From assembly GCF_965247905.1 (NCBI RefSeq), contig NZ_OZ252047.1, positions 724,414-788,413 of the forward strand: DNA of 64,000 nt. The letters run 5' to 3'. The first letter of the stretch is position 1. Each line of letters opens with the position of its first letter. The notes beneath the pieces were generated by a model. That model did not search any database. It saw only the letters and a program-made list of their open reading frames with translations, and was not told the origin of the DNA. This DNA comes from Candidatus Spongiihabitans sp. Lineage in GTDB: Bacteria; Pseudomonadota; Gammaproteobacteria; Arenicellales; Poriferihabitantaceae. Positions 4,462 to 62,741 of this stretch are shown here, piece by piece. The translations under genes were made by a program, and so were the position numbers.

Positions 4462-4540
4462 GTCATTCCAACGAAAGAACGTCACCCCTGTGAAAACAGG
4501 GGTTGGAATCCAGTTAAATATGCGTCCCGCGCAGCGGGAC
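4462..4540 (+). repeat. Two-hairpin repeat module (GTCATT-stem-loop-stem-AATCCAGTTAAATAT + GTCCCGC-GCA-GCGGGAC)
   Basis: Member of the GTCATT...AATCCAG family also seen at 12690, 14552, 14617, 21209-21790, 29035-29600 and 62714. Confidence 0.85.
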
Positions 4541-4681
4541 ACGACCGCCATGGATGGCGGAAGTGCCGATTTTGCAGGAGCAAAAATCTGCCAAAACCGC
4601 AAGCCGCTGACCTTTCCAAAGGTGGTGGACCAATACAAAATGTTGCATATCAGGTAAAAACCCGTTATGTTTCGGCGGTGT

Positions 4682-4768
4682 GCCGGGGTGGCGAAATTGG
4701 TAGACGCGCCAGATTCAAAATCTGGTTGGGGCAACTCAGTGTCGGTTCGAGTCCGACCCTCGGTACCA
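4682..4768 (+). tRNA. tRNA-Leu (anticodon CAA), class II with long variable arm, CCA encoded
   Basis: Hand fold: acceptor GCCGGGG/CCTCGGT (two G-U pairs). D arm GCG-AAATTGGTAGA-CGC. Anticodon arm CCAGA-TTCAAAA-TCTGG. T arm GTCGG-TTCGAGT-CCGAC, then ACCA. Confidence 0.9.
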
Positions 4769-4962
4769 TTTCCTTTTGAACTTTTTTGGGTAATAAGTCC
4801 ATGGAAACACCTAAATCTCCCCATAATGGCGCCCATAAAAAAATCAAGCCAAGAAACAAAATCGCCCTATCCCCTTTGTTAAAAAAAGATCATGCCCACC
4901 AATCCAACAAGGATTACAACCGGCAAAAAGAGAAGGACAAGCTAAAAGCCGCTTTGTCTCAT

Positions 4963-5098
4963 GATGACAAATAGCAGGGGATGACAAATAGCAGGGGATG
5001 ACAAAGGGCAGGGGATGACAAATAGCAGGGGATGGCAAAGGGCAGGGGATGGCAAAGGGCAGGGGATGACAAATAGCAGGGGATGGCAAAGGGCAGGC
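4963..5098. repeat. 17-bp minisatellite x8 (gatgRcaaaKRgcaggg)
   Basis: Eight head-to-tail units in two sequence variants (gatgacaaatagcaggg / gatggcaaagggcaggg), read directly. Confidence 0.95.
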
Positions 5099-5232
5099 AA
5101 ACAATGTATGTTCGGGCTCAGACACATAAGAGACTGTTAACCTGGCCCGGCTAGTGCGCTTAAAGCAGGTCAGGCCGGCGGCGTTTGATGGCAGGGTGGG
5201 TCAAGGAGTTCAAGGCAACCAGTCCGGTCACC

Positions 5233-5288
5233 CCCATCTCGGAAGTGGGACTTTAGTCCCGCCATTTGCAATGGCTTGGCGAGGCTGA
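5233..5288 (+). repeat. 56-bp dispersed repeat, copy B
   Basis: 55/56 identical to 4382-4437, same orientation; the two copies flank tRNA-Leu. Confidence 0.9.
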
Positions 5289-5628
5289 AGCCTCACTTCC
5301 GGTCGAACGTGGGACTTTAGTCCTGCCGCCCAACCAGCCTAAATGGAAGGGTTGCGTCGAGCCAATGCAGTCGTTATGCGTTCCGCCCGCTGTATGAAGG
5401 GCCGTTGACGGTGACCGCGATCAACCAGGAACGGGTCCATTACCAGTGGACCTATAATCATGCCGACCACACGATAGTTTGGATTTAATGATGCCAATGG
5501 CGTATTATCGGCAACTCACCCTGGCTGCCTGATTTTGTCTCATATGTGGTGAACCCGGACAATGTATAGCGAATTATTCGAGGACGCGTTAGACTATCGA
5601 CTGGAAAATCAGACAAGAGCGTTACAAA

Positions 5629-59136: not shown

Positions 59137-60494
59137 GCGGCGTTGGCGGGGTTGGCTGCCGCTCCTGCGCGTCCTGCGCTCGCGGCATACAGGCCATCCG
59201 TGGCCATAACTTTCGCTTCAAACTCGTGGCCGAAATGCTTCAGGAAACTTTGCACCGGCCAGGCCGCGGCGTCGCCCAAGGCGCAAATGGTGCGGCCCTC
59301 AATGCGGTTGGCGACATCCAGCAGGGTGTCCAGGTCTGACATCACGCCCCGGCCATTGTTTATGCGCTTGATAATGCGATATAGCCAGCCGGTGCCTTCG
59401 CGGCATGGCGTGCACTGGCCGCAGGATTCCTCAAAGTAAAAATAAGCGATCCGTTCCAGCACTTTGACCATATCGGTGGTTTCATCCATGATAATGACCG
59501 AACCGGCGCCGACCGCCGAGCCGTGTTGCTGCAGCGAATCGTAGTCCATGTTCGCTTGCATAATATTTATCGCCGGCATCACCGGCACCGACGAGCCGCC
59601 GGGAATCACCGCTTTCAATTTCCGCCCTTTCCAAACGCCGCCGGCCATTTTCAAAAGTTCGCTAAACGGCGTGCCCATTTTAATTTCATAGTTGCCCGGT
59701 AGTTCGACATGACCGGTCACCGAGAACACTTTCACGCCGCCGGCGTTTTCCACGCCCAGATTCTTGAACCATTGGCTATCCATCCATTTGCCGTTGCCGC
59801 GCAAAATCGCCGGCACCGAGGCGAACGATTCGGTGTTGTTGATCGTGGTCGGTTTGCCATATAACCCGAATGCGGCGGGGAATGGCGGCTTGAAGCGCGG
59901 CTCGCCTTTGAAGCCTTCCAAGGAATTGAGCAAGGCGGTTTCTTCGCCGCAAATATAAGCGCCCGCGCCTAAATGGCTGTACAGGTTGAAATCGAAACTG
60001 GAGTCCAGCACATTGCGCCCCAGATACCCGGCTTGGCCGGCTTCTTTCATGGCCCGTTCCATGGCCTCATAGGGCTGCCAAAATTCGCCGCGAATATAGT
60101 TGTATCCAACAGTCGCACCCATCACATAGCCGCCGATGACCATGCCTTCGATCAACGCATGCGGGTTGAATCGGAGAATATCCCGATCCTTGCAGGTGCC
60201 CGGCTCGCCTTCGTCGGAGTTGCAAATCACATATTTTTGACCGTCGGCGTCGCGCGGCATAAAGCCCCACTTCACCCCCACCGGAAAGCCGGCGCCGCCG
60301 CGCCCGCGCAGGTTTGACGCTTTCAAGGCTTCGATGATTTCGCCCGCCGGCGTTTGCTCGCGCAGGATTTTTTCCAGGGCCTGATAGCCGCCGTTCGCTT
60401 GATAGCTTTTCAGGGTCCAGGGCTGGTCTATGGACGAATCCGGCAAACACACGTTGTATGCCTTACGCACCGTATTAAATTCAATTTCGATCAC
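59133..60494 (-). CDS. nuoF: NADH-quinone oxidoreductase subunit F
   Basis: [13 protein letters not shown] (FMN site) and [12 protein letters not shown] (4Fe-4S). Confidence 0.95.
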
Positions 60495-60976
60495 GTCAAC
60501 GCCTGCAAGATTGTGTCGATTTTTTCCGGGCTCAGATTTTCATAGTAATCGCGGCCGATTTGCATCATCGGCGCGCCGGCGCAGGCCGCCAGACATTCCA
60601 CTTCCTTTAAAGTGAATCTGCCGTCGTCGGTGGTTTCGCCGAAGCCAATACCCAATTTATCCTGCAAATGATCGACGATTTGGTCGCAGCCGCGCAACAT
60701 GCACGAGATGTTGGTGCACACGCTGATCTTATGCTCGCCGACCGGTTTTAGATCGTACATCGAATAAAATGTTGCCACCTCGTAGGCGCGCACCGGCGGC
60801 ACGCCGATGACCTCGGCGACATGTTCAATCATCTCATCCGACAGCCAACCGTGTTCCTCCTGCGCGATTCGCAACGCCGCCATCAACGCTGACTGCCGCC
60901 GATCTGGCGGGTATTTAGCAAGTTCATTATCGATTTCCCGCAATGAAGCGTCGGAGAGCAATGCTTTGTCTAGCAT
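60491..60976 (-). CDS. nuoE: NADH-quinone oxidoreductase subunit E
   Basis: [11 protein letters not shown]...[12 protein letters not shown] (2Fe-2S). Confidence 0.93.
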
Positions 60977-60995
60977 AATATTATCGGTCTATACA

Positions 60996-62249
60996 TCATC
61001 TATCAATTTCCCCGAACACGATATCCTGGGAGCCGATGATGGCCACCATATCAGCCAGCATGTGACCCTGGGACATTTCATGCAACGCCGCCAGGTGGGG
61101 GAAGCCCGGGGCGCGGATTTTGCAGCGATACGGTTTGTTGGCGCCATCGGAGATCAGATAGATTCCGAACTCGCCTTTGGGATGTTCGATGGCGGCGTAG
61201 GCTTCGCCGGCGGGAATGCAGAAGCCTTCGGTGAATAATTTGAAATGATGAATCAAGGATTCCATGTCGCCTTTCATATTTTCCCGCGAAGGCGGGATTA
61301 ATTTATGGTCATCAACGATGACGGGGCCCGGATTTTTTCGCAGCCAGTCGATACATTGTTTGATGATTCGATTGGACTGACGCATTTCTTCCACGCGCAC
61401 CAGATAGCGGTCGTAGCAGTCGCCGTTGCTACCCACCGGAATATCAAAATCCATTTGCGGGTAAATTGCATAGGGCTGTTTCTTGCGCAAGTCCCATTCC
61501 ACCCCGCAACCGCGCAGCATAGCGCCGGTGAAACCAAGCGCTTTGGCCCGTTCTGGCGTGACAATGCCGATGTCCACGGTGCGTTGTTTCCAGATGCGGT
61601 TGTCGCTCAGTAGCGTCTCATATTCATCCACGCAGTGCGGAAATCGATCGGTAAACGCTTCGACAAAATCCAGCAGCGAGCCTTCTCGGTCGGCATTGCG
61701 CGCTTTGGTTTGCGCTTCGGAATGGCGTTTGGTTGGCGCATATTTTGGCATGGTCTCGGGCAGATCGCGGTACACGCCGCCCGGACGGTAATAAGTCGCA
61801 TGCATGCGCGCCCCGGAAACCGCCTCGTAGCAATCCATCAAATCTTCGCGCTCGCGAAAGCAATACAGGAACACGGTCATCGCGCCGACATCCAGCGCGT
61901 GCGCGCCGAGCCACAGGCAGTGGTTCAAGATGCGCGTAATCTCGTCGAACATCACGCGGATATACTGCGCGCGAATCGGCGGCGTGACGCCCAGCATTTT
62001 TTCTATGACCAGCACATAGGCGTGTTCGTTGCACATCATCGACACATAATCCAGCCGATCCATATAGCCGATACTCTGGTTATAGGGCTTGGATTCAACC
62101 AGTTTTTCAGTGCCGCGATGCAGCAGCCCGATATGCGGGTCGCAGCGCACGATGACCTCGCCGTCCATTTCCATGATCACGCGCAACACGCCGTGCGCGG
62201 CCGGATGCTGCGGCCCGAAGTTCATGGTGTAGTTGCGGATTTCAGACAT
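60996..62249 (-). CDS. nuoD: NADH-quinone oxidoreductase subunit D
   Basis: [14 protein letters not shown]...HRGTEKL...; 417 aa. Confidence 0.95.
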
Positions 62250-62270
62250 GATCGTGTTGGTATTATTTTG

Positions 62271-62660
62271 TTATTTAGTTTTTTTGCATTTTGTACGAAG
62301 CGATGGTGCTACGAAGTCCTCGCTTCCGTAGTAGTAATACAGCCCATCGCCGTCTGGCTTGATAACGAAGGCAGATTTATATACGTAATTATCCAGATCC
62401 AAGTCAAAGTTCCAGCGATGCGAGATTCCCTGCTGATAGTAAGATGCTTCTTTGCGGATTCCGTTGGCTTCGATTCTTCCGGCATCAGGTTCGCCGTTTG
62501 GGTTTTTATAAACCCATGTTTTTATAATAGGAACATTTGAATCCGATAAGAATTCAAAACAATCCCAACGTGCCGCAATGGTTGGCTCTTGCGCGCTACT
62601 TAAAACACTTGCGCTAAATAAAAACAAAAACGACGCGATACGATATTGGTGTTTATTCAT
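62271..62660 (-). CDS. hypothetical secreted protein (129 aa) inserted between nuoC and nuoD
   Basis: Signal-peptide-like MNKHQYRIASFLFLFSASVLSSAQE. GAGGA RBS upstream. AT-rich; no known motif. Confidence 0.55.
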   Translation of the reverse strand: MNKHQYRIASFLFLFSASVLSSAQEPTIAARWDCFEFLSDSNVPIIKTWVYKNPNGEPDAGRIEANGIRKEASYYQQGISHRWNFDLDLDNYVYKSAFVIKPDGDGLYYYYGSEDFVAPSLRTKCKKTK

Positions 62661-62713
62661 GAAATTTTTTCCTCACTATTAATGACAAGGGCTATTGCCC
62701 TTGGGTTTAATAG

Positions 62714-62741
62714 CTGGATTCCCGCCTGCGGCGAGAATGAC
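62714..62741 (-). repeat. Hairpin repeat of the GTCATT-CTCGCC-GCAG-GCGGG-AATCCAG type
   Basis: ctggattcccgcctgcggcgagaatgac, same core as 21248, 21733 and 29040. Confidence 0.9.

Follow-up and report, generated by a model that had tools for sequence, protein, structure and literature searches.

The 64,000-nucleotide stretch of Candidatus Spongiihabitans sp. DNA that we analyzed (contig NZ_OZ252047.1, positions 724,414 to 788,413; hereafter, the window) contains 14 copies of a hairpin repeat in which shared flanks, GTCATT...AATCCAG, enclose stems that differ in sequence while staying complementary. Judged by their sequence, these repeats are members of a known family, described variously as CGTC-tagged repetitive extragenic palindromes (REPs), as the Neisseria Transformation Sequence (NTS) and as Ssn-related motifs (SRM); what is new here is the host lineage and the stem variants, not the kind of element. 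We consider it likely, with a probability of about 0.7, that the repeats are read on single-stranded DNA (ssDNA) by a GIY-YIG nuclease of the Ssn family.

Repeat anatomy and pairing constraint

A dispersed family with common GTCATT...AATCCAG flanks had been proposed for this DNA in a first-pass annotation made from the sequence alone, and the proposal was borne out. Thirteen matches to GTCATT-N(5-35)-AATCCAG were found in the window, where dinucleotide-preserving shuffles gave a mean of 0.08 and a maximum of 1; a fourteenth copy, at 4461-4513, has a 39-nt interior with a nested hairpin. The tag reads CGTCATT in 12 copies and TGTCATT in two, AATCCAG is invariant, and the next base is T in 13 of the 14. 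Searching the window for flanks with up to three mismatches yielded no decayed-flank hairpin copies, except for the C-to-T change in the CGTC tag. An unfiltered covariance model recovered 10 window copies, missing those with long loops, and revealed no additional ones. Every repeat site in the window is intergenic.

Five or six kinds of stem are present, each complementary: CCAAC, ATCGGG, CCAGC, CTCGCC, and GCCCGGCC together with a shortened form, GCCCGG. All of the stem types listed in the first-pass annotation were recovered, some of them a few bases from where it had placed them. Folding gave ATT/AAT outer pairs, stems of 8-11 bp and a following CCAG in all 14 copies, with loops of 3-39 nt; counting ATT/AAT, the CTCGCC/GGCGGG stem has 9 bp, including one T.G wobble, and closes on a GCA triloop. 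When eight modules, comprising the repeat and a smaller hairpin downstream of it, were folded as ssDNA, the same two-hairpin structure was obtained for all eight (z-scores -2.3 to -5.2), with a linker of 14 nt between the hairpins in six.

The arrays at 20910-21870 and 28937-29880 constitute one ~1-kb inverted duplication, 95-100% identical, which comprises the repeat arrays and flanking sequence and brackets the ~7-kb hut operon; a further 231-bp tandem duplication lies inside the left array. Nine of the 14 copies fall within the two arms, and the 14 copies thus represent about six independent sites. This raises the question of whether the whole pattern might be a by-product of one large duplication plus chance, a reading that we regard as refuted for practical purposes. 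Five copies at four other sites (4461, 12689, 14580/14616 and 62742) bear four different stems, the shuffle expectation is far too low, and the same flanks recur in hundreds of loci from other organisms, so that the motif is not limited to the few copies seen here. The stem pairing counts given below lead to the same rejection.

In order to place the window copies in a wider setting, we scanned one genome per species with the pattern CGTCATT-N(12-34)-AATCCAGTKRAA (at least 113 loci), metagenomes with CGTCATTCTCG-N(5-12)-CGGGAATCCAG, which corresponds to the T.G-wobble subfamily of the window (at least 120 loci), and viral or prophage contigs for canonical copies (at least 120 loci). Taken together, the three scans gave more than 350 loci, spread over many phyla, in which the same flanks enclosed other stems that were likewise complementary; the genome-scan matches listed included Dyella, Gallionellaceae, Rickettsia, Melainabacteria and Planctomycetota, among others. 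Of 199 flank-anchored matches (the window plus 113 genome loci), 143 had four or more contiguous pairs immediately within the flanks, compared with ~4 expected from shuffled interiors, and these 143 used 28 different stems. We then scored an alignment anchored on the flanks only, with chance matches kept and each loop replaced by a fixed spacer. In it, 77% of cells were paired versus 66% after shuffling, and the covariation score was 0.277 versus 0.122; none of 500 shuffles reached either observed value. Sliding the partner by one to three columns left 19-44% of cells paired, and all five variable pairs showed two-sided changes. These data demonstrate a pairing constraint, and to that extent the earlier claim that flanks and covarying stems point to selection on structure stands; they do not separate selection from a copying process that regenerates both arms.

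The T.G wobble offers a test of which strand is constrained. It is fixed in the window's subfamily across inner stems and taxa, and the complementary strand would carry an A.C mismatch in its place. Overall we counted 10 G.T and 4 A.C mismatches, with the G.T count dominated by one subfamily, which lends weak support to action on the tagged strand.

Sequences just 5' of the copies have features of their own. At 21208-21246 and at 21438-21476, a partial 5' head (tag plus left arm) is duplicated immediately upstream of a full copy, with a C-rich tract between, and counting their mirrored counterparts there are four truncated or hybrid heads in the window. The same duplication of heads occurs in three unrelated genomes (L023, L064 and L088), and it may be a footprint of repeat cutting and rejoining. 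A degenerate head, CGTCATT-ACGAAA...TTTCGT, lies at 62757-62800, head-to-head with the 62742 copy at a distance of 14 nt and without the AATCCAG tail. The 16 nt preceding the window copies are G-poor and C-rich, with no G at -11 to -6 and C or T at -2; the bias is present more weakly in other genomes, and the published Ssn cut site falls in that region.

Family membership and the candidate nuclease

The NTS, CGTCATTCCCGCGMAVGCGGGAATCYRG, extends the dRS3 repeat and gives it a direction. SsnA, a single-domain GIY-YIG nuclease of ~95-100 amino acids, binds and cuts the NTS solely as ssDNA and solely on its tagged strand; the enzyme does not bind the RNA form, and incoming DNA bearing the NTS shows reduced recombination (PMC11893778). 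The same study generalized the NTS to SRM in many phyla, found an SsnA homologue in 81% of genomes with more than 200 SRMs, reported that SRM-rich genomes are enriched among symbionts, and noted the integration of filamentous phages into dRS3 in Neisseria. A 2013 survey by Di Nocera et al. had classed these repeats as CGTC-tagged REPs, with A-T pairs at the stem base and CCA tails, which form subfamilies differing in stem and loop and occur as dimers of unlike partners with stem-loop spacers; it accepted TGTC as a variant of the tag (PMC3733652).

The window flanks CGTCATT...AATCCAG are identical to those of the NTS. Published mutagenesis showed that the three bases 5' of the palindrome weighed most for cleavage and that the C just 3' of the palindrome was the most crucial base for binding (PMC11893778), and the bases found to be most critical are positions that are invariant in the window copies. 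The unpaired 5' HGTC tag that defines an SRM is present throughout, as CGTC in 12 of the 14 copies and as TGTC in two. In all 14, a hairpin semi-palindrome directly follows the tag and is itself followed by an unpaired tail that begins with C (CYRG/CCA). Likewise, the tag, A-T pairs, CCA tail and inverted dimers of the CGTC-1 REPs are all found here.

Flanks of this kind suggested a Neisseria origin for the DNA, which we rejected. No DNA uptake sequence dialect was found in the 64-kb window, and NuoD is 95% identical to a protein of Candidatus Spongiihabitans (Poriferihabitaceae, Arenicellales, Gammaproteobacteria). Several array modules of the window recur, at 83-94% identity, in a Poriferihabitaceae metagenome-assembled genome (L013). 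A sponge-symbiont host fits the published enrichment of SRM-rich genomes among symbionts.

Similar to NTS and SRM, the window repeats are hairpins with directional unpaired flanks and are intergenic and clustered, with repeat-gene-repeat arrangements, in a symbiont. They differ from them in that the host is a gammaproteobacterial sponge symbiont, that five or six stem types occur in one genome, some with loops of 12-39 nt, and that no ssn gene was found in the 64-kb window. Their likeness to the CGTC-1 REPs, which include dRS3 and the Neisseria intergenic mosaic elements, extends from the CGTC/TGTC tag, A-T stem start and CCA tail to 8-9 bp stems, 4-5-nt loops, stem and loop subsets, unlike dimers, stem-loop spacers and mosaic arrays. 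However, the window stems reach from 8 to 11 bp and the loops from 3 to 39 nt, compared with the described 8-bp stem and ~4-nt loop; the CGTC repeats of the survey are mostly from Alphaproteobacteria, and the fixed 14-nt spacing and GNA triloops of the second hairpin are undescribed there (PMC3733652).

Two other systems were considered. GTAG-tagged REPs, which pair with REP-associated tyrosine transposases (RAYTs) (PMC3733652) and form REPtrons and bacterial interspersed mosaic elements, resemble the window repeats in being small hairpins read on ssDNA, with an enzyme gene between inverted repeats and gene-less copies in mosaic arrays. In contrast, the window tag is CGTC, the enzyme would be a GIY-YIG nuclease and not an HUH/Y1 transposase, and Ssn is not known to have strand-transfer activity. 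Among the 20 window open reading frames (ORFs) scanned, which are not every ORF, there was no IS200-like Y1 transposase, and we rejected a GTAG REP/RAYT system. Integron attC sites offer an analogy only: they too have short conserved flanks around a variable complementary stem, are recognized as folded single strands and form cassette borders. The window lacks the RYYYAAC/GTTRRRY core sites, however, and its cassettes are multi-gene and in both orientations; no integrase or attI was found among the ORFs scanned (again not every ORF), and attC was dropped.

The nuclease assignment draws on genomes in which an ssn gene lies next to the repeat. By the published criterion, ssn is a single-domain GIY-YIG (cd10448) gene, typically between inward-pointing repeats (PMC11893778). 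Using tblastn with Ssn-type proteins, we found ssn beside the repeat in 3 of the 113 genome loci listed, 8 of the 120 metagenome loci listed (five within 40 nt) and 5 of the 120 viral loci listed. These 16 loci include members of the window's T.G subfamily; the first such gene to be noticed lies beside a repeat in L062. The ssn-type genes encode ~91-95 amino acids, and the four proteins tested, of 90-95 amino acids, all match Pfam GIY-YIG. One locus (L277, 7785-8165) holds a complete 380-bp unit of repeat, ssn and inverted repeat, tags outward. This heads-out orientation dominates among adjacent copies in all three locus sets (28 to 2, 16 to 2 and 20 to 5). Because heads-out pairs share the repeat-ssn-repeat geometry, pairs without a gene look like non-autonomous derivatives. 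The earlier idea of a REP- or MITE-type element (MITE, miniature inverted-repeat transposable element) recognized by a structure-specific enzyme is supported by the published family and by the ssn-adjacent loci; the RAYT/IS200-like transposase that had been suggested is the wrong partner, a GIY-YIG Ssn protein being the likely one.

Each unit opens with CGTC as its unpaired 5' tag and continues into a hairpin that keeps ATT/AAT as outer pairs and accepts nearly any complementary sequence in its inner stem; next come an unpaired 3' tail starting with CCAG and, in this subfamily, a T-K-R-A-A linker with a small second hairpin ~14 nt downstream, mostly with a C-GNA-G triloop. When single-stranded, the CGTC strand would fold, and the element would act on that one DNA strand. 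The small, single-domain Ssn nuclease would read the constant unpaired flanks and the hairpin shape, not the stem sequence, and would cut a few bases 5' of the tag. This would account for invariant flanks with freely varying complementary stems. ssDNA-specific binding and cleavage, and the effect on recombination, are taken from the published work (PMC11893778); that an Ssn protein is encoded and active in this genome is our inference.

Several observations weigh against this explanation. The published SRM pattern, HGTCWYN(0-2)YYVSBRHN(0-5)WNVSBRGN(0-2)RNCYNB, covers only 6 of the 14 copies and leaves out the remaining eight. No window copy fits the strict NTS (CGTCATTCCCGCGMAVGCGGGAATCYRG) or NTSvar (CGTCATACTCGGGNNNNNCCCGAGTATC) definition with at most one mismatch, the nearest being the 14581 copy (3 mismatches from NTS) and the 12689 and 14616 copies (4 from NTSvar), and nothing in the window corresponds to strict dRS3 (ATTCCC-N8-GGGAAT). 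A motif scan and tblastn with two Ssn proteins found no ssn or other GIY-YIG gene in the 64-kb window. Complementary arms could be kept by a copying mechanism and not by selection. The sole demonstrated biological role, modulation of natural transformation, comes from Neisseria (PMC11893778), and an Ssn model leaves unexplained the second hairpin, which is enriched only in the TKRAA-tailed subfamily. It is important to note that the copies outside the SRM pattern fail on stem composition or loop length and never on the flanks; we therefore file these repeats as new members, with new stem variants, of the known family.

The second hairpin and RNA-level alternatives

All of the second hairpins reported in the first-pass annotation were found (4524, 21286, 21517, 21772 and 29305). 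A second hairpin follows 10 of the 12 unique window copies, and its stems covary: GTCACGC, GTCCGGC, GTCCCGC and GTTCGGC each occur with their complement. In the TKRAA-tailed genome set, a second hairpin followed 33 of 121 copies, whereas the same test upstream gave 3 of 121, and its start peaked 10-11 nt after AATCCAG. In a wider test, which admitted all perfect hairpins of 5 bp or more over 40 nt, the commonest loops were GAA, GTA and GCA, closed by C-G. There was no enrichment in the metagenome T.G set (11/145 versus 7/148) or in the viral set (9/204 versus 4/200). We therefore rejected the second hairpin as a universal feature and treat it as a subfamily module outside the family core.

Nothing in the main text of the Ssn paper (PMC11893778) refers to a further hairpin at a constant distance, and Di Nocera et al. 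touch on stem-loops in dimer spacers only briefly (PMC3733652). It is conceivable, if rather improbable, that the two-hairpin module is a bipartite single-strand signal, in which a tagged hairpin, a 14-nt linker and a C-GNA-G mini-hairpin have been kept together in the TKRAA-tailed subfamily of distant bacteria, the second hairpin being a separate recognition or rejoining element and the heads-out pairs truly mobile. If so, Ssn or a partner protein would be the long-missing mobilizing enzyme of CGTC REPs, and pairs could transport the genes between them, for example the 7-kb hut operon (21732 to 29075) or the nuo-operon cassettes.

Hairpins in series also bring to mind a role in RNA, with the transcribed repeats acting as terminators, attenuators, mRNA-stabilizing ends or small structured RNAs, as classically proposed for REPs and as the first-pass annotation had suggested in part. 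A lenient terminator scan flagged several second hairpins followed by TCCTTTTGG and, over an 18-kb region, 43 terminator-like sites versus 24 expected. Furthermore, the nuo copy lies on the transcribed strand within its operon, a T.G wobble would remain an acceptable G-U pair at the RNA level, and Di Nocera et al. make a case for the transcription of many REPs (PMC3733652). Against this, Rfam at gathering thresholds gave no match at the repeat sites, the only match in the window being tRNA-Leu at 4682-4768. None of the copies has a T-run after hairpin 1, and at hairpin 2 a short run follows only after an intervening TCC, giving TCCTTT(T). At three of the six sites (4461, 12689 and 14580/14616), the neighboring genes are transcribed away from each other, a setting in which a terminator would be out of place, and copies occur in both orientations, unrelated to gene direction. 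C-GNA-G triloops, for their part, are exceptionally stable in DNA mini-hairpins. Moreover, the published enzyme does not bind the RNA form (PMC11893778). The repeats do not fit the description of an intrinsic terminator (a GC-rich hairpin with a T tract directly after it, at the 3' end of a transcription unit), and the small-RNA or attenuator proposal is not supported; an RNA-level role of any kind appears unlikely.

Cassettes, duplication and mobility

The repeats in this genome form mosaic arrays and, as we read them, edge strain-specific cassettes. Heads-out copies at 12689/14580 bracket a CBS-domain protein and a proline racemase; from 14616 to the left array they bracket a PhyH dioxygenase and a low-GC type III restriction-modification pair; and the copies at 21732/29075 bracket the hut operon. 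Three ~180-bp heads-out pairs contain no gene (21247/21426, 21477/21660 and 29254/29431). The inverted duplication around hut is a layout that permits inversion or gene conversion, and the hut genes resemble a cassette.

Comparison with relatives revealed that copies are insertion-polymorphic. No repeat copies were found in ~100 kb of syntenic DNA from relatives (L234, L235 and L356-L360). Between nuoC and nuoD, the window carries a 613-bp insert (62250-62862) made up of the repeat, its second hairpin and a 129-amino-acid, secreted-looking ORF with a signal-peptide-like start; the two genes adjoin directly in one relative and are separated by an unrelated cassette in another. The nuo operon in this lineage is a hotspot of cassette insertion. 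Between queA and tRNA-Leu, the 4461 repeat lies within a ~205-bp segment that is absent in relative L356 (86-89% nucleotide identity), and synteny with relatives ends ~120 bp from the 12689 copy. Of the placements given in the first-pass annotation, the intergenic one holds, and its nuo copy lies between nuoC and the inserted small ORF upstream of nuoD; its placement of copies inside insertion sequence (IS) remnants is weakly supported.

Could the repeats instead terminate conventional MITEs that a classical transposase mobilizes, or serve mainly as targets of IS110/Piv-type recombinases and filamentous phages, as dRS3 is, with Ssn irrelevant here? The ~180-bp heads-out pairs do resemble MITEs with terminal inverted repeats, copies are insertion-polymorphic between relatives, and the arrays are bordered by IS1595-like remnants. 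At least 120 viral or prophage contigs contain canonical copies, in some at both ends, and phage integration into dRS3 has been reported (PMC11893778). However, the window copies are without an associated transposase or IS110-type gene, a target-site duplication was not evident at the one junction examined, where the alignment is ambiguous, and the two ends of a pair bear different stems. ssn is the only gene that recurs between heads-out repeats, and CGTC REPs have no dedicated transposase according to Di Nocera et al. (PMC3733652). We therefore consider such a reading doubtful as the main explanation, though it may describe an additional property, and favor recognition by an Ssn-family nuclease, under which the repeats may affect cassette exchange in this genome.

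Further observations deserve mention. Canonical repeats lie at or near the ends of small viral or prophage contigs of 6.7-12 kb, namely L307 (76-103 and 11897-11924), L264, L290 and L310, which agrees with the way Neisseria filamentous phages are known to integrate into dRS3. Relatives' nuo operons carry DNA methyltransferases, a methyltransferase-HNH gene, or a 3'-phosphoadenosine-5'-phosphosulfate-reductase/SMC/DUF87 set between other nuo genes (L234 7071-10008 and 17190-17996; L235 11778-16734). The major facilitator superfamily gene comes after the rplQ end of the ribosomal-protein/rpoA operon in L356 and L359, and after a xanthine/uracil permease in L357; in the window (~12560-12700), repeat-bounded cassettes take the place of that neighbor, and a rearrangement breakpoint thus adjoins the 12689 copy. 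An 84-amino-acid frame next to the array (20940-21160, mirrored at ~29640-29860), which stops at the start of the repeat array, resembles IS1595 transposase N-termini (tblastn against plasmids, E = 6e-6, 41% identity) and had no Pfam or NCBIfam match; its assignment as an IS remnant is weakly supported.

The type III restriction-modification pair at 15873-20901 (res, 1025 amino acids; mod, 642 amino acids) occupies a low-GC stretch (0.42-0.47 versus ~0.52) between repeat sites and was probably acquired as an island. Two overlapping ORFs (27242-28381 and 28276-28914) make up the urocanase gene hutU, either because a frameshift has made it a pseudogene or through an error of assembly. A 56-bp direct repeat, 98% identical (4382-4437 and 5233-5288), brackets 851 bp with the 4461 repeat, tRNA-Leu(CAA) and a tandem array, and is possibly a duplication left by insertion. 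Short tandem arrays occur at 4946-5131 (17 bp x 8, GATGACAAATAGCAGGG), 6999-7103 (15 bp x 5, CTAACTAGCCATGAT) and 36904-36978 (15 bp x 4, TCGTTTAAGTATGGG).

Table 1. Repeat hairpins, second hairpins and truncated heads in the window
Feature	Position	Strand	Description
Hairpin 1	4461..4513	+	CGTCATT-CCAAC...GTTGG-AATCCAG; loop with nested CGTC-tagged hairpin CGTCA-CCCCTG-TGAAAA-CAGGGG; ssDNA fold
Hairpin 2	4524..4540	+	GTCCCGC-GCA-GCGGGAC
Hairpin 1	12689..12719	+	Stem ATCGGG/CCCGAT, loop CTTGA; resembles NTSvar
Hairpin 2	12730..12747	+	CAGCGGC-AACG-GCCGCTG
Hairpin 1	14553..14581	-	TGTCATT-CCAGC-GCAA-GCTGG-AATCCAG; closest to canonical N14 NTS class; covariance model 46 bits; matches SRM pattern
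Hairpin 2	14525..14540	-	CCGCG-CTTTAA-CGCGG
Hairpin 1	14616..14646	+	Stem ATCGGG/CCCGAT; head-to-head with 14581 copy
Hairpin 2	14657..14669	+	GCGGC-GAA-GCCGC
Truncated head	21208..21246	+	CGTCATTCTCGC fused to GGCGG-A6-CCGCC hairpin and C-rich tract
Hairpin 1	21247..21275	+	Stem CTCGCC/GGCGGG, T.G wobble, GCA triloop
Hairpin 2	21286..21302	+	GTCACGC-GTA-GCGTGAC, then TCCTTTTGG
Hairpin 2 of 21426 copy	21357..21373	-	GTCCGGC-GTA-GCCGGAC
Hairpin 1	21385..21426	-	Stem GCCCGGCC/GGCCGGGC, 12-nt AT-rich loop; ~180-bp heads-out pair with 21247
Hybrid/truncated head	21438..21476	+	Duplicate of 21208 module
Hairpin 1	21477..21506	+	CTCGCC variant, one additional loop base
Hairpin 2	21517..21533	+	GTCACGC-GTA-GCGTGAC
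Hairpin 2	21588..21604	-	GTCCAGC-GTA-GCCGGAC, one A.C mismatch
Hairpin 1	21616..21660	-	Stem GCCCGGCC, 15-nt loop
Hairpin 1	21732..21760	+	CTCGCC variant; innermost copy towards hut operon
Hairpin 2	21772..21788	+	GTCCGGC-GTA-GCCGGAC
Hairpin 2 of 29075 copy	29018..29034	-	
Hairpin 1	29047..29075	-	CTCGCC variant; mirror of 21732, heads-out across 7.2-kb hut operon
Hairpin 1	29253..29294	+	TGTCATT tag, GCCCGGCC stem
Hairpin 2	29305..29321	+	GTTCGGC-GTA-GCCGAAC
Hairpin 2	29376..29392	-	GTCACGC-GTA-GCGTGAC
Hairpin 1	29403..29431	-	CTCGCC variant, loop GAA
Hybrid/truncated head	29432..29470	-	Mirror of 21438-21476
Hairpin 1	29482..29513	+	Shortened stem GCCCGG/CCGGGC
Hairpin 2	29525..29541	+	GTCCGGC-GTA-GCCGGAC
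Truncated head	29571..29582	-	CGTCATTCTCGC; mirror of 21208
Hairpin 1	62714..62742	-	CTCGCC variant; 5' border of strain-specific cassette between nuoC and nuoD
Hairpin 2	62686..62703	-	CAAGGGC-AATA-GCCCTTG; directly upstream of ribosome-binding site and ATG of inserted 129-amino-acid ORF

A repeat family spotted from sequence alone thus turned out to be one known since 2013, whose enzyme partner was identified in 2025. The family is now placed in a sponge-symbiont lineage, the Poriferihabitaceae, with several stem types in one genome, and fewer than half of the window copies are caught by the published search patterns. Its repeats mark the borders of variable cassettes, one of them inside the nuo operon, and in one subfamily a further hairpin follows at a constant spacing. 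If Ssn enzymes read flanks and shape, as the diversity of stems suggests, this would bear on their proposed use as programmable ssDNA cutters.

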